Positions 1,466 to 34,394 of a stretch of DNA of 36,344 nt are shown in pieces (within the stretch, counting starts at the first letter, position 1; each line of letters opens with the position of its first letter). The position numbers were made by a program, and so were the translations under genes. Location: IMG/VR virus record IMGVR_UViG_2541047905_000018, one strand, 5' to 3'. The notes under the pieces are model-generated. The model saw only the letters and a list, made by a program, of their open reading frames with translations. It had not been told where the DNA came from and searched no databases. The DNA comes from a virus (taxonomy: Duplodnaviria > Heunggongvirae > Uroviricota > Caudoviricetes).

Positions 1466-3525
1466 TCCACAACCTCCCCAAGCTGCGCATCTGTTAGCTC
1501 TTTATGCCAGAGACGAAAATTCCTCACATGCCCAAATAAATGGCGTAATCCTGCTGTAGTTTGTCCACCAATGCGAATGGTTGCTGTACTCCGGATATAT
1601 TCCCATGTGGTTTTTGTTTCGCTGGATATACGCCCGTTACTTACTGCACATGTAGACTGATCTGACTTTACACGCATCCCCATAACCATTTTTTTCAACG
1701 ATGCGTTTTCGTTAACACGCCTATTTGATCCACCAATATCGCAATAAGGAAATCCGTCTGGCCCATCTGCCGAAGATCCGAAGCCAAGAATAATAGCCGC
1801 TCCGGTTTGATGACCGCCGGTATCAAAAACACGTGGCGCTGCATTTGGCGTTTTATACCAGTTCTTATGTACCTCACAAAGAACCGTAAAAGGAAGATTA
1901 TAAAGATTATTCTTAATCGGAACTGTAACCATATCGCTTGCGCGCGTCGCCGCCGTCGTTCCTGATATAATAAAAGATGATACACACGAACCATCCTCAA
2001 CCTGAGGGGTGGCCAGATAAATATAGTCACCAGATTCAACGACACCACCTTTTTTTGGTGCGTATTGTATTGCAGAGGTTATGTAAGTTTCTTTACTTGC
2101 TTGAATCGTTGCCTCTACAAAAATCCAGCCCGTAGCTTCATCTTTGTTAACTCGTGCGGTGAGCCTGTCGGCAGCTACACCGGTGATTTCAACCAATAAA
2201 GACCGCGTATTAACAATGGCATATCCAAGATTAGATGAAGCGCTGCCATCGAAGGCTTCAAACCTGATCCTTAACAGGAGTTCCAAATCCGTTTTAAATC
2301 TGCACGATGTCGTCACACACTTATTATCGCCTGATACATCGACAGCCCCCGAGGTTGAAACTACTGCCATATTAAGGGTTGTACTTTGCCCAATTAATGA
2401 TTCATTACAAACAAACTTTCCATAAGTAAAACCAAAACTATCAGTTCCAACCTCAGCGACATTCATATTTGCAGATTTACCCCAAGAAGCTGGAGTTGCT
2501 GAATTCAACATGTAGTTGGTTCGCTGACCTTCAATCAATAAACCTTCTTTTTCAAATCGTGGCTCATTAATTTCCGCCGTTTTCAGTTCGCCAGATTTGT
2601 TGATATATGTTGCCGTTGATGCGCGACTGAAATTAACCTGTTTATCACTGGCAACCTGAACCACATTATCACCAATCTTCACTTTTTTATAACCCGGAGA
2701 ATAGCCCGTAATCATATCCAGCGAATCATTAAAGGGTATCCACACATCCGGCAGCGGCTGTAAAACATATCTGTACGGCTCTGCTGTCTGGTTTGCGTAT
2801 TCTCTGGCAGCATCTTCACTTGCTTTTGCTGCCGTCTGGCTTGCTGCCGATGCTTTCGCCGAGTTCGCCGCCGCTGTTTCGCTCACCTTTGCGTTGGCTT
2901 CACTGTCTTTGGCATTCGTCTCACTGGTTTTCGCTGCCGTCTGGCTGGATTTTGCGTTTTTTTCGCTGGCCTTTGTGGCTGTCTCGCTATTTTTCGCGCT
3001 GGTTTCTGATTTTTTGGCTGCTGTCGCGGAGTTTGCCGATGCAGTCTGCGAGGCCGCTGCCGCCTGTGCGCTGTTAGCTGCATTCGTTTCTGAGGTTTTC
3101 GCCGCATTCTTCGATGAGGCTGCTGCCGTTTCGGATTTCTTTGCCGCCGCTGCACTCTGTGATGACGCTCCGGCATGACGTGCCACTTCATTCACCATCA
3201 GCTCAAAACGGCGCAGTGCCTCCGGACGAACATCATCCTCCGTCATGGCGCCGAGAAAATCATTCAGCGTACCTGGTCTGGAACCTTCATAGACGGTAAT
3301 GGTCCCGGCATGTGAAGGCGGAAAACCTTCAACCAGCAGGGTGACGCTGTACTGGCCATACTCAACATCCATGCTGTAACGCCCGGCTTCATCCGGATTT
3401 TCAGAGGCCACCGTGTTCACCACCACCGTGCTGCTGGTCCGTCTGGCCTTCAGCACAATGGTGCAGTTCTGTACTGGTTTTCCTGTGCCATCTTTCAGCA
3501 CACCTGAGATTTTTACTGCTGCCAT
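1462..3525 (-). CDS. stf: Side tail fibre protein (lambda Stf-like N-terminus, Ala/Ser/Thr-rich repeat shaft, divergent C-terminal domain)
   Basis: N-terminus MAAVKISGVLKDGTGKPVQNCTI... matches lambda Stf as recalled; ATG at 3525 preferred over GTG at 3531; C-terminus ends with a LamG/ConA-lectin-like motif (inference). Confidence 0.88.
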   Translation of the reverse strand: MAAVKISGVLKDGTGKPVQNCTIVLKARRTSSTVVVNTVASENPDEAGRYSMDVEYGQYSVTLLVEGFPPSHAGTITVYEGSRPGTLNDFLGAMTEDDVRPEALRRFELMVNEVARHAGASSQSAAAAKKSETAAASSKNAAKTSETNAANSAQAAAASQTASANSATAAKKSETSAKNSETATKASEKNAKSSQTAAKTSETNAKDSEANAKVSETAAANSAKASAASQTAAKASEDAAREYANQTAEPYRYVLQPLPDVWIPFNDSLDMITGYSPGYKKVKIGDNVVQVASDKQVNFSRASTATYINKSGELKTAEINEPRFEKEGLLIEGQRTNYMLNSATPASWGKSANMNVAEVGTDSFGFTYGKFVCNESLIGQSTTLNMAVVSTSGAVDVSGDNKCVTTSCRFKTDLELLLRIRFEAFDGSASSNLGYAIVNTRSLLVEITGVAADRLTARVNKDEATGWIFVEATIQASKETYITSAIQYAPKKGGVVESGDYIYLATPQVEDGSCVSSFIISGTTAATRASDMVTVPIKNNLYNLPFTVLCEVHKNWYKTPNAAPRVFDTGGHQTGAAIILGFGSSADGPDGFPYCDIGGSNRRVNENASLKKMVMGMRVKSDQSTCAVSNGRISSETKTTWEYIRSTATIRIGGQTTAGLRHLFGHVRNFRLWHKELTDAQLGEVVE
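2829..3159. repeat. Internal degenerate coding repeats in stf (KTSETNA/AAKKSET units)
   Basis: Repetitive nucleotide and peptide units visible in sequence and translation. Confidence 0.6.
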
Positions 3526-3536
3526 ATCCACTCCAT

Positions 3537-3562
3537 AAAAAAGCCCGCCTGAACCGGCGGGC
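3537..3562 (-). terminator. Rho-independent terminator between lom and stf (minus strand)
   Basis: On the minus strand GCCCGCC-ggttca-GGCGGGC followed by U6. Confidence 0.6.
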
Positions 3563-3589
3563 TGTCATAACACTGTGTTACCTGGCTAA

Positions 3590-4189
3590 TCAGAACTTAT
3601 AACCGACACCCACGATGAAACTGTTGGTACGCCAGTCACCGCTGCCGGAGCCTTCATAAGCGACATCAATGGCCACGGATTCGGTCGGGTTAAACTGCAC
3701 GCCAGCTCCCCACGCCAGAGACGTGTTGCTGTGGCGACCGTCATCACTTCCGGTCAGCACATCGTGCTTTTTCCCCTTGTTGTCAGTTACGCGGAGATAA
3801 TCCCCGGAGAAAGTCGACACACGGCTGTAAGCCACACCCACCATCGCATACGCGCTGAACCATTCATTCACGCGTACAGACGGCCCCGCCATCACGCTGA
3901 ACCAGCGGTTACGCACGGAATCTTCATGCCAGCGGGTATCGCTGTAGTGCGTTTTTTGCTCATCCTCAGCATTGGCATAACTGAAGGACGTAATCAGCCC
4001 CAGCGCGTCCGTAAACTCATAACGGTATTTCACGTTAATCCCGTTCAGATTATCGCTGCCGGGAGCGTTCGTACGGGCATGAAGATACCCCGCGCTCAGT
4101 GTGGACTGATGTTCAGACGCCCATGCAGGCGCACCGGATACGGACAGACAGATGGCTGCGGACAAAATGGCTGCACATAATTTACGCAT
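3590..4189 (-). CDS. lom: Outer membrane protein Lom (Ail/PagC/Lom family)
   Basis: 199 aa, near-identical to lambda Lom as recalled (MRKL.AAILSAAICL...GVGYKF). Confidence 0.93.
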   Translation of the reverse strand: MRKLCAAILSAAICLSVSGAPAWASEHQSTLSAGYLHARTNAPGSDNLNGINVKYRYEFTDALGLITSFSYANAEDEQKTHYSDTRWHEDSVRNRWFSVMAGPSVRVNEWFSAYAMVGVAYSRVSTFSGDYLRVTDNKGKKHDVLTGSDDGRHSNTSLAWGAGVQFNPTESVAIDVAYEGSGSGDWRTNSFIVGVGYKF

Positions 4190-19813: not shown

Positions 19814-21571
19814 TCACAGAATTAACAGGTCCTCATCAGGATCAAGCGTGGACAGAAAGTCATTCACGCCCCCGCCATTTACCAGAAAGCGGCTCATGGC
19901 TGTAAAAAGCGCAACAGGGCCGTCGATTTTGGCTTCCGGCGTGGATTTATTCGGGAAGATGTTGTCGTTTTTGTCCGGTTTTACAGTAACGTTAGACATC
20001 ATCCAGTTCATGACCGGATGATTGCTGTGATGGAAACGCCCGGCATAAACCAGTGATTCCGTTTCCTTCATGGCCTCTGACAGATTGCGGACCGTCTGCG
20101 GAACCTCCACCAGCGGTATCCCTTCTTCAGCCAGTGCCAGGCTGAACTGCATTGCGCTCCACGGGTCAAATCCCAGTTCCCTGAGGTTTTCACCGCCAAT
20201 CCATTCCAGTAAGTCACTTTTTATCTGAGCATGATCGATAACATCACCATCCGTCAGGATGAGCTTATCCATCTCCGCCCACTTCCGGTAAAGTTCTGCC
20301 TGCTGCCGCGAGCATCGCTCCAGCCGTCCTTCCGGAAGCCAGAATTTAAAATCAGCATGAACATGTCCGTTATCGGTTCGCCAGAGTTTTGCCGCCGCAC
20401 AGATATCAATCTTATGAGCAAGGTCTACGCCGACCCACATGGGATATGTTTTCAGCTCATGTTGTGGAGCAATGTATTCGCACTTCTCCCACTTAATCAT
20501 ATCCATCCAGGCAGATTCGGCAGTGACCCACACATTCATGTGTTTGGTAAAAAAATTCACCCGCGCAGAGACCTGCTCCTTCGCTTTTTTCGCCAGACGA
20601 CGCAGATCATCCCAGCGTTTACAGATGCCCAGGCCAGGATTCGCTTTCTGCCAGACCGTTTCATCAAACGGATCATCTCCCTCATCAAGCGTGTAAATGA
20701 TCGCAAAGTAAGAGTCGTCTTTTACAGCGCCCTCCACGTCGCTGTTATAGCCTCGCAATACCTTGATGGCGTAATCACGCTGCTCGTAACAAATCCCTTC
20801 CTTGTTAAAGCCAGCCGTGGTGATACCAAATAACAGGGACTGCAGACGGGCACCGGTTGCCGTTTCCAGAACGTCCCACACGTCGCGGGTTTTATGTGCA
20901 TGCAGCTCATCAATAATGGCGCAGTGGATGTTCAGACCGTCCAGGTTGTTTGCATCCGAGGAAAGCGGTTCAAATTTTGATGCGCTCTGCTCCTGGTAAA
21001 TCGCCAGCTTGTTGAAATCAAACAACCGCCCGAGTGTCGACCGGGCTTTTCTGACCATATTTTTGGCGTCTTCAAACACGATTCTGGCCTGGTCACGCGT
21101 GGTTGCGGCTGAATACACCTCAGCTCCGCCTTCACTATCTGCCCCCGTCATATACAGGCCGATACCCGATGACAGTGTTGATTTTGCGTTTTTACGGGCG
21201 ACTTCGTTGTACGCCGTCCGGAACCGGCGCACCATCACCGGACGTCCGCTGCCATCGCTGCGCATGACAACTTCCCCGGTTTCTTCATTGACCAGCGGAA
21301 TGACAAAACCAAAAATATTAATGAGGATAAATACATGCCAGTCCATCAACTCAATGGGCTGGCCTGCCAGTGCCCCTTTTACATGAGGCACAAATTTGTA
21401 GAAATTCAGGATGTGCTGCGCACGGGGTTCACTGAAATAAATCCCCCGCTTTTCGCCGTACTTCAGATCATCAAGAAAACGCTGGCAGGCCAGGCGGACA
21501 AATTCGCCAGCAACAATTTCTCCTGCAACAACACGTTCGGCGTAGCGGATCCCGTCAGCCACTTTTGCCAT
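19814..21571 (-). CDS. Terminase large subunit
   Basis: 585 aa; ATPase and nuclease regions; follows small subunit with ATGA overlap. Confidence 0.9.
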   Translation of the reverse strand: MAKVADGIRYAERVVAGEIVAGEFVRLACQRFLDDLKYGEKRGIYFSEPRAQHILNFYKFVPHVKGALAGQPIELMDWHVFILINIFGFVIPLVNEETGEVVMRSDGSGRPVMVRRFRTAYNEVARKNAKSTLSSGIGLYMTGADSEGGAEVYSAATTRDQARIVFEDAKNMVRKARSTLGRLFDFNKLAIYQEQSASKFEPLSSDANNLDGLNIHCAIIDELHAHKTRDVWDVLETATGARLQSLLFGITTAGFNKEGICYEQRDYAIKVLRGYNSDVEGAVKDDSYFAIIYTLDEGDDPFDETVWQKANPGLGICKRWDDLRRLAKKAKEQVSARVNFFTKHMNVWVTAESAWMDMIKWEKCEYIAPQHELKTYPMWVGVDLAHKIDICAAAKLWRTDNGHVHADFKFWLPEGRLERCSRQQAELYRKWAEMDKLILTDGDVIDHAQIKSDLLEWIGGENLRELGFDPWSAMQFSLALAEEGIPLVEVPQTVRNLSEAMKETESLVYAGRFHHSNHPVMNWMMSNVTVKPDKNDNIFPNKSTPEAKIDGPVALFTAMSRFLVNGGGVNDFLSTLDPDEDLLIL

Positions 21572-22053
21572 CAGTCTCTCGCTTTTAAAAGCTCTGCCAG
21601 CGGATCAACATTATCCGGTCCGGCGGTATTTACTTTTGCCCGGCTTGCCGGTGACATACCAAATTCTGCAAGCATCGCCCGGATCCGCTTCCAGGCATCC
21701 GCTTTCATCGCAGCAGCTGGGTGTGCCTTAATCAGCACATCACCGTTCTGCGTTTCCGAGCGGTAGGTGTACCCCTCAACATCGAGTGTTTCGCAGTGAT
21801 GCCGGTATTCGGTATAGGCTTCCACCAGTAGCTCAAGCGCACGCGCATCAAGCTGAGAAATGATCCCTTCCGCATTCAGCTCTTCCGCCATTCGCCTGAA
21901 CCAGTACTTCCCCTGCGCCCCTAAATGTTGCGGAATTTTAGGGAGACCTTTTTCATCCTTTTTAGCGGTTTTTTTGAGGTCTTTAACTGGCCGCTTTGAG
22001 GGGTTGCCTCGTATCAAATGCAGGCGTGGCGGGGTTTTCGGGGGTCCAGACAT
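21571..22053 (-). CDS. Terminase small subunit (P27 family)
   Basis: 160 aa, basic N-terminus MSGPPKTPPRLHLIRGNPSKRP. Confidence 0.85.
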   Translation of the reverse strand: MSGPPKTPPRLHLIRGNPSKRPVKDLKKTAKKDEKGLPKIPQHLGAQGKYWFRRMAEELNAEGIISQLDARALELLVEAYTEYRHHCETLDVEGYTYRSETQNGDVLIKAHPAAAMKADAWKRIRAMLAEFGMSPASRAKVNTAGPDNVDPLAELLKARD

Positions 22054-22099: not shown

Positions 22100-22200
22100 T
22101 TTCGAACCTGCGGCGATGCGAGGAAAGGTCAGGCGGCGGTACTGAGCAGCCTGGGTTGCAGAGATTTGATCCCCCCCCTCCCCCTTGAAGATGGCGGCAA
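22100..22200. other. Candidate cos/packaging-site region upstream of terminase small subunit
   Basis: Non-coding GC-rich stretch with AGGTCAGGCGGCGG and a CCCCCCCCTCCCCC run, between the HNH/cassette and TerS; exact cos ends not identifiable. Confidence 0.25.
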
Positions 22201-22282
22201 AAAGCAGATACTGGCCACCCATCAGGATGCTCAGCATGGTGTATTCAGTTAATCTCAATAAATAAAAGATGGAGTCTAAGAA

Positions 22283-22798
22283 ATGGATAAAACCAGAAAA
22301 TATGACAGAGCCTTACAACTTGAAATCCTCAATGCCCTTATAGATTGCGCGCCTAACTCTTTAAACAAGGCACAGGAGCGAGACCTCATTGAGAAGTTTG
22401 ACAGTTACGATCACTTTGTGGCGTGCATGTTATACCTTGAAATGCATGGTCTCGTTTCCACCCCCTTCATACGCAGTGACACCATGGCTGGCGTTGAGTT
22501 TATCTTCTGTGCCCCTAACTGCTACATTACAGAAAAAGGAATTGATTTTCTTCTCGATGATGGCGGCTTAAGTGCGATCCTTAAAGTTCAGACCTTTCGG
22601 TTACACAGTGACACGATTGTTGCCCTTGAGGATATAATCCGTGTCGCAAATATATCTGAAGATCAGAAGAAGGGATTGATTTCAAAACTCCGAGAGCTTC
22701 CGGGAGACGCCATAAAACATTTGACCCTACAGTTACTGACTCAGGGGGTTCTGAATCTGCCGAACGCACTTCGACTAATTCAAACAACCCTCCAGTAG
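22283..22798 (+). CDS. Hypothetical protein A1 (171 aa), partner of B1; paralogue of A2 at 33611..34114
   Basis: GGAG SD 8 nt upstream; conserved with A2 (MDK..., ITEKGIDFLLDDGGL, LRELPGDAIKHLT). Confidence 0.7.
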   Translation: MDKTRKYDRALQLEILNALIDCAPNSLNKAQERDLIEKFDSYDHFVACMLYLEMHGLVSTPFIRSDTMAGVEFIFCAPNCYITEKGIDFLLDDGGLSAILKVQTFRLHSDTIVALEDIIRVANISEDQKKGLISKLRELPGDAIKHLTLQLLTQGVLNLPNALRLIQTTLQ

Positions 22799-22937
22799 GG
22801 CTAAACTCATCTGAGGGGCGAATTAACTCAAATTTGCCCCATCCCAGTTTTTCACTTAAAACAACCCAAAATCCCTCCCGGGTATCTGCATGAATATAGA
22901 AACTATTTTTATGCATTACAGCAGTGAATATTATCAT
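22581..22937 (-). CDS. Hypothetical protein B1 (about 118 aa), partner of A1; paralogue of B2 at 33478..33771
   Basis: Start MIIFTAVMHKN at 22937 overlaps the HNH stop (ATGA); the N-terminal 46 codons lie outside A1 and are conserved with B2. Confidence 0.65.
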   Translation of the reverse strand: MIIFTAVMHKNSFYIHADTREGFWVVLSEKLGWGKFELIRPSDEFSPTGGLFELVEVRSADSEPPESVTVGSNVLWRLPEALGVLKSIPSSDLQIYLRHGLYPQGQQSCHCVTERSEL

Positions 22938-23284
22938 CGAATACGTTCCCTTGCTGTCTTCTCTCTGTGGCATTCCCTGCATAACGACTCAAGATTGGAG
23001 TCATCATCGGTGCCGCCATGAGCTTTTGGAATCATGTGGTCTACAGTCCTGGCCTCAACGGCTCGTCCATTGCGCAGACAGTTCTTACACAGATGGTTAT
23101 CACGCTTCAGTATACGCGCACGTATAACATCCCATTTCGAGCCATAGCCACGCTGGTGGCGACTCAGTCCGCGTTGATGCTGTACCCATCCTTCACCACG
23201 ATGTTTATCGCAGTAACCAGAACTGTCTGTGGTTGTACCTGCGCATCCACGCTTACGGCAGGCACGTGGGATTCGTGATGGCAT
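22934..23284 (-). CDS. HNH endonuclease (terminase-associated)
   Basis: 116 aa with Cys-rich N-terminus and DHMIPKAHGGTDDDSNLESLCRECHREK HNH motif. Confidence 0.85.
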   Translation of the reverse strand: MPSRIPRACRKRGCAGTTTDSSGYCDKHRGEGWVQHQRGLSRHQRGYGSKWDVIRARILKRDNHLCKNCLRNGRAVEARTVDHMIPKAHGGTDDDSNLESLCRECHREKTARERIR

Positions 23285-25101: not shown

Positions 25102-25107
25102 GCATGT

Positions 25108-25137
25108 AAAAAGGCCCCAACACATGTGCGTGGGGCC
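25108..25137 (-). terminator. Rho-independent terminator on minus strand, downstream of the tRNA cluster
   Basis: GGCCCCA-11 nt-TGGGGCC followed by U5 on the minus strand. Confidence 0.5.
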
Positions 25138-25377
25138 TGAGAGTATACATGGTTTCAGTCAACTGCATGGTGCCGGGTGCCTCCCGGTGAATTCAGTACC
25201 AGCACCTGAATCCGCGATTATCCCATATACCTACTCGCTGATTGCCCATCCGCACAGGGGGATTCACCATGCCAGTTTCTTTTAACAAACTCCCCGCAAA
25301 ACAGACAACTGTCAACCGTCTGAATTGTGAGACATTTAAAAAAAAGGCCCGCAAAAGCGAGCCGGGAAAAATAAGTC

Positions 25378-25454
25378 TGGCGCGTTGTACTGGATTCGAA
25401 CCAGTGACCGATTGCTTAGAAGGCAATTGCTCTGTCCGGTTGAGCTAACAACGC
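25378..25454 (-). tRNA. tRNA-Arg (anticodon UCU)
   Basis: Hand-folded cloverleaf: acceptor GCGTTGT/ACAACGC, anticodon loop CUUCUAA, T-loop TTCGAAT, encoded CCA. Confidence 0.8.
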
Positions 25455-25467
25455 AGGGTACAGATAA

Positions 25468-25544
25468 TGGACCGCCATCGAGGACTCGAACCCCGCGCAA
25501 CCAGCTTCGAAGGCTGGTGCTCTATCCTGATGAGCTAATGGCGG
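25468..25544 (-). tRNA. tRNA-Arg (anticodon UCG)
   Basis: Hand-folded cloverleaf: anticodon loop CUUCGAA, T-loop TTCGAGT, encoded CCA; acceptor starts with C1-G72. Confidence 0.75.
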
Positions 25545-25551
25545 TATGTGA

Positions 25552-25627
25552 TGGTGGCCCTTGCTGGATTTGAACCAGCGACCTGGCGATTATGAGTCGC
25601 TCGCTCTCACCACTGAGCTAAAGGGCC
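25552..25627 (-). tRNA. tRNA with CAU anticodon (Met, or Ile2 if lysidine-modified)
   Basis: Hand-folded cloverleaf: acceptor GGCCCTT/AAGGGCC, anticodon loop CUCAUAA, T-loop TTCAAAT, encoded CCA. Confidence 0.8.
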
Positions 25628-30499: not shown

Positions 30500-31353
30500 T
30501 TACGCACCTCCTTATGCTTTTCGTTCAGTTCCGAGTCCACCAGCCCGGCAACGAATACACCATCGTTGATGTAGTCGTAGAGCGATGAAGCCAGCGGAGA
30601 CTGAACTGAAACCAGCATCGGATAAAGTTGTTCTAACCAAACGCGGTGAATTTCAGCCATGTAGAGGTAAACAACGTGGGCATTGTGCGCGACACATGAA
30701 GTATCAACCTTTCCGATCAGCGCCTGTTCCATCTGGTTAAAGGCATTGATGTATGCCTCTTTGAACTGGGCAGCACGTTTACCCGTGAAACCCATAGCAA
30801 GAAACGCAAAGCCATCGCGGGTTATTTGATAGCAAGGTAGTTTGCGAGTACCGCCGTTGGGCTGGCGTACCAAAATTGATGTCTCCGCAAAATTGCGGGC
30901 ACAAAACTCTGGAGAACAATCCAAAATGCGAATCTTTTTCAGAACATCGTCATGACGTTTAGAGAAGAAGTCAGCAACAGCCAAAGAAGATGTAACAGCC
31001 TGACCATCAACGATGGCAATTTCAGGTTGAGAGAGGGTTGGGAGAGTAGTCATAGTGACAGCCCCGGTAGTCAGTTTTTTAGAAAACTCACCACATGGGA
31101 CGCCAATCACAGAGGTGGTGAGACGTACAGGGTTGGCGTTACCGGAGACTACCGAACCCGGCCCGACCGAAGTCGGCCCTGTACGCCCCACCATAATTTG
31201 GGCGTAGCAATGCTCATGACACGAAAAAACCGCATGAGCGCGGTTATGCTCAGTAATCAATTTCAGGACGCCAATCCCGGCAACGGATTTTGCCGCTGCC
31301 AGAACAATATAACGCCCAGAATTATCAGAATCAATCATTACTGGTTTGCTCAT
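30496..31353 (-). CDS. Rha-family phage regulatory protein with about 100-aa N-terminal extension (start uncertain)
   Basis: Rha-like region begins at internal Met (31053, MTTLPTLSQPEIAIVDGQAVTSSLAVADFFSKRHDDVLKKI); the ORF is open upstream to ATG 31353. Confidence 0.55.
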   Translation of the reverse strand: MSKPVMIDSDNSGRYIVLAAAKSVAGIGVLKLITEHNRAHAVFSCHEHCYAQIMVGRTGPTSVGPGSVVSGNANPVRLTTSVIGVPCGEFSKKLTTGAVTMTTLPTLSQPEIAIVDGQAVTSSLAVADFFSKRHDDVLKKIRILDCSPEFCARNFAETSILVRQPNGGTRKLPCYQITRDGFAFLAMGFTGKRAAQFKEAYINAFNQMEQALIGKVDTSCVAHNAHVVYLYMAEIHRVWLEQLYPMLVSVQSPLASSLYDYINDGVFVAGLVDSELNEKHKEVRK

Positions 31354-32520: not shown

Positions 32521-32617
32521 ATGCCCTCCAAACTAAGTTTTATTAGATGTTAATTATCAATCTATCTTAGGTCAATAAAAACTAAGATTACTTAGTAATT
32601 AAAGAAATGGTGCTCCT
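32521..32617. promoter_or_regulatory. Right operator/divergent promoter region (PR/PRM) between cro and cI
   Basis: Perfect palindrome ACTAAGATTACTTAGT (32581..32596), CTTAG-N11-CTAAG and CTAAG-N5-TTAG in a 97-bp AT-rich intergenic region. Confidence 0.65.
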
Positions 32618-33244
32618 ATGGAAACGGTTGGTCAGCGTATAAAAGCTCTGAGAAGAGTTACCAGAACGTCCCAGAAAGAATTGGGTAAATTTTGTGGAGT
32701 AAGTGACGTTGCTGTGGGGTACTGGGAGAAAGACATCAATGTCCCTGGTGGGGAAGCACTTTCAAAATTAGCGAAGTTCTTCAATACGTCAATAGATTAC
32801 ATTCTTTATGGTGCGGAGTTTGAAGGCAAACTCGTCACAAACATGCGCAGAGTTCCTGTAATCTCGTGGGTTCAGGCTGGGCAGTTTACTGAGTGCAGGA
32901 CAGCAGAAGTGTTTAGTGAAGTAGACAAGTGGGTAGATACATCATTAAAGATTGGTGATAACTCATTTGCATTGGAGGTTAAAGGCGACTCCATGACTAA
33001 CCCTAACGGCCTCCCAACAATACCAGAAGGCGCAACAGTGATTGTAGATCCTGATGCAGAACCCCGGCATGGAAAAATAGTCATCGCTAGACTTGATGGA
33101 ACAAACGAAGCCACAGTAAAAAAATTAGTTATCGATGGCCCTCAAAAGTTTTTAGTGCCATTAAATCCCCGGTACCCCAACATCCCGATCAATGGTAATT
33201 GCCTCATCATTGGTGTAGTCAAAGGAGTTCAATACGAACTCTAG
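32618..33244 (+). CDS. cI: CI-type prophage repressor (N-terminal XRE HTH plus C-terminal LexA-like S24 peptidase)
   Basis: 208 aa; HTH near N-terminus; C-terminal GDSM...K autocleavage-type domain (VKGDSMTNPNG...ATVKKL). Confidence 0.88.
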   Translation: METVGQRIKALRRVTRTSQKELGKFCGVSDVAVGYWEKDINVPGGEALSKLAKFFNTSIDYILYGAEFEGKLVTNMRRVPVISWVQAGQFTECRTAEVFSEVDKWVDTSLKIGDNSFALEVKGDSMTNPNGLPTIPEGATVIVDPDAEPRHGKIVIARLDGTNEATVKKLVIDGPQKFLVPLNPRYPNIPINGNCLIIGVVKGVQYEL

Positions 33245-33262
33245 CCCCCCTTTTCTCTAACC

Positions 33263-33325
33263 AAAACACCGAACTAAGAAAAGTTTGGTGTTTTCTCTTG
33301 CCATCAAAACTAAGTTAAGTTAGAT
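33263..33325. promoter_or_regulatory. Hairpin plus further CTAAG operator-like half-sites downstream of cI (candidate left operator or cI terminator)
   Basis: AAAACACC-16 nt-GGTGTTTT hairpin with AACTAAG in the loop, then AAACTAAGTTAAGTTAG. Confidence 0.4.
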
Positions 33326-33477
33326 TTTATATCAAAGATAACGAACAGGCAGGACGCCCACGAAGTAGCCGCCCGGGGCATATGAAGTCCAGGATGATTC
33401 GTTAGCAACAAAAAAGCGCCCTACAGGACGCTTAGCTCTTTAACAATCTTGGTATCCCCGTAACAAAAGAGGGTTCT

Positions 33478-33771
33478 ATGGTCATATTCTGTGCTTACGT
33501 TCATCCTAATGGATTTTTTATCAGCACCAACCAACAAGACGAATTCTGGATTCTACTTAGTAAGCAGGTCGGATGGGGACGATTCTGTCTAATCCGACCA
33601 GAATCAGAATTTACAGAGAATGGAGGGCTTTTTGAATTACGTGAAATACGTCCGGCAGATGGTCAAGCCCCTGACCAAGTAATCGAATCGTCAGCTGTTT
33701 TATGGCGTCGGCAGGAAGCGTTCGAAGCTGAGAGAGTAATTTCTTCTTATCTTCAGTCGTGGCAGAAGTAG
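33478..33771 (+). CDS. Hypothetical protein B2 (97 aa), paralogue of B1, co-directional with cI
   Basis: AGAGGG SD; about 44% identity to B1 over the conserved core (FW..LS...GWG.F.LIRP..EF...GGLFEL). Confidence 0.65.
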   Translation: MVIFCAYVHPNGFFISTNQQDEFWILLSKQVGWGRFCLIRPESEFTENGGLFELREIRPADGQAPDQVIESSAVLWRRQEAFEAERVISSYLQSWQK

Positions 33772-34114
33772 AACTATTGATGATACGTTCAAGTTCACAG
33801 AGAGTCTCATCATGCAATCTTATTGTCATAATCCCAAGAATAGCTTTAAGACCTCCATCATCACGAATGAAATCAATTCCATCTTTAGTAATTCTTAATT
33901 CAGGAATATTTATATTTATGCCATCCAAGTAATAATCAAGAGCATTCTTAATCAAGCCATGTTCTTCGAGATAAATTAAGTTCGAAATTAGGACATTATC
34001 ATCTCCAAATGCGTCACGAACAGACTGCAACGCATCATCAGAAATTTCATAAGGATGAGCATCATACAGTATTTGTAACAACTGCCTTTGTGCACTTCTA
34101 TCAAATTTGTCCAT
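33611..34114 (-). CDS. Hypothetical protein A2 (167 aa), paralogue of A1, convergent with B2
   Basis: Conserved with A1 (ITKDGIDFIRDDGGLKAIL, LRTLPADAIKQLT); 3' end overlaps B2 by about 160 bp on the opposite strand. Confidence 0.7.
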   Translation of the reverse strand: MDKFDRSAQRQLLQILYDAHPYEISDDALQSVRDAFGDDNVLISNLIYLEEHGLIKNALDYYLDGININIPELRITKDGIDFIRDDGGLKAILGIMTIRLHDETLCELERIINSSTSATTEDKKKLLSQLRTLPADAIKQLTIRLLGQGLDHLPDVFHVIQKALHSL

Positions 34115-34394
34115 CTTAAATAATCACCATGTTATTGGGGGTATCAAGATTAACCGAATCCTTGTTGTTGGGGAATAACCAGGTCCACCTCGCCTGATGT
34201 GGCTAAAAGCAGGCACATAACAGCTAAGTATTTTCAACCAGAGAGAATCCTTAGCGTTGTGGTGAATGCGGCTCAGCGCACGCGGGTTAAGGTTGAGGCT
34301 GACAGTCGACCTTCTGTGGATACCCACCCGCCTGGTGTGCAACCTTCGCCAGGCACCGGGAGGCACCCGGCACCACAACAGCCACTGCTTTGGC

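Follow-up and report, generated by a model that had tools for sequence, protein, structure and literature searches.

A 36,344-nucleotide (nt) stretch of an HK97/lambda-type prophage (IMG/VR record IMGVR_UViG_2541047905_000018; hereafter the window, meaning the whole stretch of DNA analyzed) carries two diverged copies of a two-gene cassette in which a larger gene, A, and a smaller gene, B, converge and overlap tail to tail. The sequence evidence indicates that A and B are both real, selected protein-coding genes, and that they form a genuine antisense overlapping pair: both reading frames are open, both are under purifying selection, and A shows fewer synonymous changes inside the overlap than outside it. 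It is reasonable to regard the pair as an undescribed accessory system, and no published description of it was found in a literature search. More tentatively, and as a possibility that we hold to be real but short of probable, we propose that the cassette is a portable reciprocal lysogeny/lytic switch, for which we infer the timing of expression, an antagonism between A and B, and an anti-phage role.

In copy 1, A1 (22283..22798, + strand, 171 aa) faces B1 (22581..22937, − strand, 118 aa), and the segment that is coding on both strands (22581..22798) measures 218 nt; in copy 2, A2 (33611..34114, − strand, 167 aa; RefSeq protein WP_000357060.1) faces the B1 paralog B2 (33478..33771, + strand, 97 aa) over 161 nt (33611..33771). 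These coordinates, which come from the open reading frame (ORF) listing, bear out an earlier note on this DNA that had described A1 and B1 as a convergent pair with a tail-to-tail overlap of ∼218 bp and had pointed to a second, diverged and likewise convergent pair at 33478..34114. The same note gave 40%–45% identity between copies for both partners, close to the amino-acid identities of 39% for A1 and A2 (E 4e-35) and 48% for B1 and B2 (E 4e-32); a hidden Markov model (HMM) profile of B matches B2 with E 1.2e-31. The B1 frame is open from 22982 down to 22581, or 133 aa from its first ATG. We place the likely start at the ATG at 22937 because this codon shares the sequence ATGA with the stop codon of the adjoining HNH gene and lines up with Met1 of B2 in the protein alignment; from there, B1 begins MIIF, its residues 1–46 lie outside A1, and residues 47–118 lie within it. 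B2 is preceded by an AGAGGG ribosome-binding site. In both copies the phase is identical, with B codon position 1 opposite A codon position 1, and therefore the wobble position of each gene faces the second position of the other. To call the cassette “duplicated,” as had been done earlier, is misleading. The copies are diverged paralogous cassettes that were acquired independently and did not arise by local duplication, because they are distributed separately (copy 1 in 28 and copy 2 in 77 of 5,426 complete E. coli genomes) and because an A1 protein search matched one place only in phage PhiR49_2.

The evidence for coding on both strands comes from 86 A loci, 80 of them from a scan of one genome per species and 6 from phages; those of the species scan belong to Gamma-, Beta-, and Alphaproteobacteria and to one Longimicrobiales metagenome-assembled genome (MAG). 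Across these loci, the antisense ORF that crosses the A stop in the B phase has a median length of 107 aa, versus 34–36 aa in the other two phases. An iterated B profile detects B at 51 of the 86 loci, always convergent, overlapping A, and in the same phase. Because this profile partly covers DNA inside A, a second one was restricted to the N-terminal part of B that A does not overlap; it matches 18 loci, and each match adjoins the A boundary without a break and in frame. When A1 was recoded synonymously over 70 codons, the antisense frame stayed open in 0.03% of trials (1.9% for A2, over 51 codons), and the openness of the shared antisense frame is thus far beyond chance.

Selection on B can be read directly in the region outside A, in which the median ratio of nonsynonymous to synonymous substitution rates (dN/dS) is 0.19 over 19 pairs with unsaturated dS; between the window and locus L010, for instance, dN is 0.12 and dS is 2.1. 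The footprint on A is equally distinct. At B-bearing loci, third-position identity of A is 0.565 inside the overlap versus 0.313 outside (Mann–Whitney p=4.6e-11), whereas at loci without B the corresponding values are 0.285 and 0.308, a difference that is not significant. The proportion of synonymous differences (pS) in A follows the same pattern, with group means of 0.81 outside versus 0.53 inside the overlap at loci with B and 0.81 versus 0.78 at loci without it; in the comparison of the window with the Dryocola locus L009, pS drops from 0.83 outside to 0.12 inside. A per-codon profile of third-position identity locates the constrained stretch at A residues ∼128–167, equivalent to B residues ∼50–90, and the B tail past residue ∼90 is free of this constraint. 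The synonymous sites of A are frozen only in the B overlap, and only in loci that bear B.

These results bear on the possibility that B is non-functional, with the antisense ORF and its conservation arising as by-products of constraints that act on A, on an RNA, or on a terminator element. Such a reading could draw on the lack of any B call in the RefSeq and phage annotations that we checked, and on the fact that the conserved C-terminal B motif VLWR..EA faces a conserved motif of A. It would, however, have to account for 46 N-terminal B codons outside A with a dN/dS of ∼0.19 and saturated dS, for the 18 loci at which the N-terminus-only profile is in frame with the A boundary, for the added constraint on A synonymous sites in B-bearing loci alone, for a frame that is open far more often than recoded controls permit, for a confidently predicted fold of B residues 1–70, and for start–stop coupling or a Shine–Dalgarno sequence at B. 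The sequence evidence already contradicts this explanation, and we regard it as extremely improbable. The view of B as an antisense artifact is rejected on the strength of the open frame, the dN/dS of the B-only region, and the frozen A sites in B-bearing loci, which upholds the earlier claim that B is a real protein. With this signature of double selection, and with A homologs lacking B as a built-in control, the pair bears on the long dispute over the function of antisense ORFs in bacteria.

Both proteins fall outside characterized families, as had been suspected from the sequence: A1, A2, B1, and B2 returned nothing significant in Pfam, NCBIfam, or PADLOC searches. A matches only phrog_3983, a family that carries no known function, over its full length (A1, E 1e-56, residues 5–171 on profile positions 2–164 of 165; A2, E 2.6e-59). 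The Pfam family YjcQ (PF09639) scores below its gathering threshold with A (12.5 bits vs a cut-off of 23.3; E 0.18). Among the defense models of PADLOC-DB v2, A1, B1, and B2 have no match, and the one hit of A2, to a CARF model, is at chance level (E 0.013); Pfam and PADLOC searches revealed neither a HEPN nor a nuclease signature in A. Known defense or toxin domains are thus lacking, and the defense, exclusion, or toxin–antitoxin role suggested earlier is so far without support. The AlphaFold2 (AF2) model of A, with a mean predicted local distance difference test score (pLDDT) of 80, consists of a winged helix (residues 9–91), a low-confidence linker, and a four-helix C-terminal domain (residues 109–170). 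The N-terminal part has the H-H-H-beta-beta wing topology of winged helix-turn-helix (wHTH) proteins and resembles regulators of the YjcQ/MarR/PadR type. The winged-helix-like core proposed earlier is thus upheld by the model and by similarity to solved wHTH proteins, and A is probably DNA-binding. The linker contains a motif, DDGGLSAIL (A1 residues 92–100; window ∼22556–22582), that is nearly invariant across the A family and yet forms the only low-confidence stretch of the model (pLDDT <50); this combination would be typical of a region that is disordered until a partner binds. We also considered, and dropped, a relationship between the C-terminal domain and the “B domain” of Protein A, for which the match was significant against multi-repeat constructs only (a single domain gave E ∼0.5); it is treated as a resemblance between helical bundles.

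For B, neither a PHROG family nor a PDB match by profile search was found. Its AF2 model (pLDDT 72 overall and >84 for residues 1–70) has five beta strands within residues 1–70 followed by a weakly predicted helix, and suggests a small beta-rich protein of ∼100 aa; the model has no significant structural neighbors in the PDB or BFVD. Mapped onto the two models, the DNA read on both strands corresponds in A to the two C-terminal helices and in B to the stretch from the final strand through the linker to the helix.

The cassette is common, yet its smaller gene has largely escaped annotation. The 194 database relatives of A are all ∼165–175 aa long and all named “hypothetical,” and A2 is indexed in 7,759 blocks of an assembly collection. 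B is rarely called as a gene (17 proteins in one collection), and none of the RefSeq and phage records that we opened has a B coding sequence, A alone being annotated there. In these records B is left unannotated because the longer overlapping gene gets called, and it constitutes a hidden protein family. Among 1.84 billion representatives, a profile search recovered 90 clusters of B at 50% identity, consisting of stand-alone proteins of 53–211 aa only and of no fused forms. Neighbors of the cassette are heterogeneous, with neither a conserved third gene nor an alternative partner at loci lacking B.

At each of two loci scored as lacking B (L085, from the Longimicrobiales MAG, 3001–3652, and L074, 3001–3664), a convergent, very divergent ORF with B-like motifs that overlaps A can be recognized by eye; an example of these motifs is LFEIAELRPADGP. 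Based on these two loci, the HMM count may understate both the spread and the divergence of the pair, which may reach past Proteobacteria. In Halomonas phage vB_HboP_4908 (L007, 1763–2311), an annotated − strand ORF covers the whole A homolog and A itself is uncalled, which is probably a strand mis-call. Klebsiella phage ST405-OXA48phi1.3 (L005, 2501–3416) carries an unannotated A homolog that has a different C-terminus and is without B; downstream of it lies a convergent gene of 131 aa that looks HEPN-like by eye only.

A survey of genomic neighborhoods reveals a consistent orientation. An ORF ends ≤400 nt upstream of B in 49 of 54 cases, about half of them within ≤50 nt and several with overlaps of 1–8 nt, and the genes identified there are of lytic type. 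In Salmonella prophages, B follows the antiterminator Q and precedes a holin; in Proteus, it lies between the tape-measure protein and tail protein M, and a tape-measure protein also precedes it in Xenorhabdus. In the Betaproteobacteria Castellaniella, Pusillimonas, and Paracandidimonas, the upstream gene encodes a Cro/YdaS-type helix-turn-helix protein that overlaps B by 8 nt, with cII downstream; elsewhere it encodes CII (Pseudomonas), a Dam methylase (L034), or KilA-N (L010). Where a co-directional gene precedes A, it encodes a regulator of lysogeny type, and the survey found Arc/Mnt-like ribbon-helix-helix genes (Edwardsiella phage GF-2, with a 4-nt overlap, as well as Providencia and Pelagibacterium) or cI/XRE repressor genes (two Acinetobacter lineages and Accumulibacter). 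B is co-directional with the lytic unit, and A opposes that unit or follows repressor genes. It follows that the cassette occupies, or itself brings about, a point of convergence between two units, one on the lysogeny side that contains A and one on the lytic side that contains B. This arrangement suggests a way for a prophage to carry a function of the lysogenic phase and to switch it off upon induction. The orientation, the persistence of the overlap across bacterial classes, and the frozen synonymous sites of A are the most informative features of the cassette, and they are absent from the earlier note.

In the window, copy 1 is a moron between the HNH endonuclease gene (22934..23284, − strand) and the gene for the terminase small subunit (TerS; 21571..22053, − strand), the next late gene downstream of B1. 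We classify it as such because phages of the phi467 type, in which TerS directly follows HNH, lack the cassette; because, according to blastn breakpoints, an 821-nt segment (22184..23004) stands in place of 89 nt of phi467; and because the inserted DNA is GC-poor (0.42–0.46 vs 0.51–0.55 in flanking DNA). The cassette is thus present or absent between conserved flanks, and its composition is atypical; a promoter and terminator of its own are predicted for A2 alone. E. coli phage PhiR49_2 matches copy 1 at 99.8% identity, and 10 related phages match only the flanks of this copy. A1 is the sole + strand gene within the late operon, which lies on the − strand and with which B1 runs. At one end, the inserted segment takes in DNA upstream of A1; at the other, it includes ∼23 codons from the 3′ end of HNH (22934–23004), and similarity to phi467 starts again at 23005. 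The cassette seems to travel with the 3′ end of HNH, with a recombination junction inside that gene. For both copies, related phages carry the flanks without the cassette, in agreement with the initial description of accessory insertions at variable prophage slots.

Copy 2 lies past the gene for a cI-type (LexA/S24) repressor (32618..33244, + strand). A hairpin with a 13-bp stem and a U-rich tail (33263..33294, + strand; inverted repeat I2, fold z-score −3.5) is the likely cI terminator, and it is followed by a predicted PL-like promoter, TTGCCA-17-TAGATT (33298..33329, + strand), that overlaps the operator-like motif ACTAAG-N5-TTAG. This motif occurs five times versus 1.0 expected, always in the cI/cro intergenic region or in the interval between cI and B2 (32532–33323), and the 31-nt element at 33299–33329 is 81% identical to an element in the cI/cro intergenic region (repeats D1/D2). 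By position and direction, the element would be PL/OL, and B2 appears to be the first gene of a cI-repressed early-left operon in which B2 and YfdP- and YfdQ-type genes run toward int. The possibility that B2 is carried on the cI transcript in the manner of rexAB was also entertained and was dropped in view of the hairpin after cI and of the operator-bearing PL-like promoter before B2. The earlier placement of this copy “beside cI” holds in so far as B2 is near cI; B2 is, however, apparently the first gene after a PL-like promoter past the cI terminator. In the interval from cI to the early-left genes, only A2 is on the − strand, and it would be the one antisense gene of that operon. A promoter-like site, TTGATA-16-GATTAT (34120..34147, − strand), is predicted just upstream of it, and on the A2 strand a terminator-like hairpin with a T-run (33414..33433, −) lies past the B2 start; the hairpin forms in the fold, with a z-score for the whole segment of only −0.69. 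With its terminator-like hairpin in this position, the A2 transcript would complement all of B2, including the ribosome-binding site.

Upstream of A2, between it and the early-left genes, direct repeats that follow the pattern CCWTGTTRTTGGGG lie at 34129–34142, 34160–34173, and 34249–34262, and these repeats could be protein-binding sites, A2 being one candidate ligand. In Escherichia phage vB_EcoM-689R6 (L106, 1793–2405), the slot between cI and YfdP, which corresponds to 33478–34114 of the window, is occupied by another, apparently unrelated convergent pair; its genes (68 aa on the + strand, 144 aa on the − strand) overlap tail to tail by 29 nt, and neither has a Pfam match. Judging from this phage, the slot may favor sense/antisense cassettes. 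The window encodes several RNAs as well. A C4 antisense RNA (31111–31198, − strand; 82 bits) in the early-right region and an adjoining isrK Hfq-binding RNA (31223–31299, − strand; 69 bits) both exceed the Rfam gathering score, and an Rfam match to the small RNA STnc100 (25102–25301, − strand; 133 bits) lies just downstream of a tRNA cluster, ahead of the lysis genes. That cluster (25378–25627, − strand), located after the Q region and before the lysis genes, comprises Arg-tct, Arg-tcg, and Met-cat, and the same three genes are carried by PhiR49_2.

According to the proposed switch, the lysogen would produce A, by transcription that starts at A's own promoter and opposes a silent lytic operon or that arrives with a cI- or Mnt-type repressor transcript; production of B would be confined to times at which the lytic operon around it is active. 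The promoter concerned would be PL for B2 and that of the late operon for B1 (with coupling to HNH), and PR would be a further lytic promoter able to drive B. Head-on transcription of B through A, together with an A transcript antisense to B, would render the two states mutually exclusive, and the B protein would also neutralize A and so spare the phage's own lytic growth from A activity. In the lysogenic phase, this activity would most likely consist of exclusion or repression of incoming phages, although, to judge from its modeled fold, A could act in repression or exclusion of such phages or in tuning of phage or host genes. About 40 codons read on both strands under double selection would bind the two genes physically. 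We also raise, as a rather doubtful extension based on the models, the idea that the two proteins recognize each other through the very parts that the shared DNA encodes, namely, the two terminal helices of A and the closing strand and helix of B, such that effector and off-switch would be fused at the level of DNA. If so, recombination could neither separate nor mismatch them, and the pair would represent a new and widespread family of phage-borne two-state modules built on a long antisense overlap that is ancient and clearly selected in phage and cellular genomes alike.

Several points weigh against the switch. All promoters and operators considered here are predictions, and the promoter scan returned no convincing promoter for A1. 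At Acinetobacter loci, no lytic gene of the same orientation adjoins B, which therefore would need its own promoter there. About one-third of A loci have no recognizable B, which implies that A can work without it. Further, A has neither an enzymatic nor a known effector domain, and a purely regulatory role fits equally well. Such a role is the substance of one alternative, in which the cassette is a repressor/anti-repressor module without any defense function, A tuning prophage or host genes during lysogeny and B inactivating A lytically, comparable to secondary immunity of the Mnt/Ant type. The resemblance of the A fold to MarR, PadR, and YjcQ regulators would fit this explanation, as would the position of A in six lineages, immediately after an Arc/Mnt-like or a cI gene, and the absence of defense-family matches; modules of a transcription factor and a small protein that govern prophage fate do exist (PMC10432266). 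These known modules are, however, not convergent and overlapping, related phages manage without the cassette, and its occurrence in many unrelated slots (cos-proximal, between Q and holin, in tail operons, at PL, and at PR) is typical of self-contained accessory genes. On balance we find a purely regulatory module somewhat unlikely, if well worth bearing in mind.

A toxin–antitoxin (TA) or addiction module, in which 3′-overlapping convergent transcripts would add antisense control as in txpA/RatA, is a still less likely account. It is suggested by the tight linkage of two genes in a mobile cassette with a convergent 3′ overlap, by a wHTH partner reminiscent of DNA-binding antitoxins, and by the presence in one prophage of two diverged and possibly non-cross-reacting copies. 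Nevertheless, no toxin or antitoxin family was matched in Pfam, NCBIfam, or PADLOC; B is, as modeled, a beta-rich protein of ∼100 aa rather than a short hydrophobic peptide; the would-be antisense RNA encodes a conserved protein of 170 aa; the genes are not co-directional, unlike those of type II operons; and A is often found without B.

Comparison with known systems sharpens these distinctions. Type I TA pairs such as txpA/RatA and bsrG/SR4, often located on prophages, likewise converge with a 3′ overlap of ∼100–200 nt, but their antitoxin is a non-coding RNA and their toxin a small hydrophobic peptide, whereas both A/B transcripts encode conserved soluble proteins under purifying selection. 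As for type II systems, A and B do not form a co-directional operon and have no recognizable toxin fold. The sieB-esc-sas system of P22 and lambda comes closer in logic, combining a lysogen exclusion gene in the PL region with self-escape through an inhibitor protein and a lytic antisense RNA; Esc, however, is an in-frame internal product of sieB, sas is non-coding, and SieB is a membrane protein, whereas A and B are two distinct proteins on opposite strands.

A closer parallel in layout is found in Pseudomonas phage Fc02, the lysis–lysogeny region of which contains an opposite-strand overlap. Here olg1/olg2 are co-transcribed with the repressor during lysogeny, gene 10 lies behind the cro-like ner in the lytic operon, and both sides gave superinfection exclusion; Olg1 has a mass of 7.9 kDa, and Gp10 was recovered in the insoluble fraction (PMC9936078). 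As in the betaproteobacterial A/B loci, a cro-like gene leads into a small gene that opposes a lysogenic gene on the other strand. The Fc02 study (Ramirez-Sanchez et al. 2023; PMC9936078) gives no evolutionary evidence for a double constraint of the kind shown here for A/B. We considered the olg/gene 10 region as a relative of A/B and regard it as analogous only: Fc02 is not among the phage matches to A or B, although its presence in the searched collection is unconfirmed. Two other candidates were set aside, namely, the transcription factor–small protein modules (PMC10432266), the architecture of which differs, and STMMW_20121 of Salmonella ST64B, an antisense moron expressed in the lysogen (PMC7067206), as a homolog of A, given that no Salmonella phage record matched A/B. 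Protein-coding ORFs antisense to annotated genes and overlooked by annotation are also known from E. coli O157 and P. aeruginosa; they are reportedly embedded and evolutionarily novel (PMC9927249, PMC8850804), whereas A and B are independent genes that overlap partially and tail to tail, range from Gamma- to Alphaproteobacteria, and carry clear evidence of selection in both frames.

The closest experimentally tested precedent for the proposed logic is Tha/Ith of Staphylococcus aureus prophages, in which an accessory gene expressed in the lysogen is partly overlapped by a small antisense gene that serves as its lytic off-switch. Antisense transcription makes the two states mutually exclusive, and the balance between immunity and autoimmunity depends on this layout. 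The Tha protein is an RNase of the HEPN type, and ith has a constitutive promoter inside the cI operon (Rostol et al. 2024; PMC11087260). In the A/B cassette, too, a small gene overlaps a larger one in antisense, by 218 and 161 nt in the two copies of the window, an arrangement kept in at least 51 loci. The proteins themselves are unrelated in sequence and fold, A being modeled as a wHTH joined to a helical bundle and carrying no HEPN signature. B, moreover, mostly rides lytic operons whereas ith has its own constitutive promoter, and the A/B overlap is distinguished by its length of about 150–220 nt, its double constraint, and its conservation across Proteobacteria. A/B thus shares the architecture and, by analogy, probably the logic of Tha/Ith without being a member of that family, and we infer that it is a prophage accessory gene with an antisense-overlapping off-switch, built from uncharacterized, unrelated proteins and with an overlap that is unusually long, old, and clearly selected. 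Should A exclude other phages, the pair would constitute a new anti-phage system with built-in self-immunity; and if the switch operates as proposed, the Tha/Ith principle would extend from staphylococcal phages to those of Proteobacteria by way of unrelated proteins.

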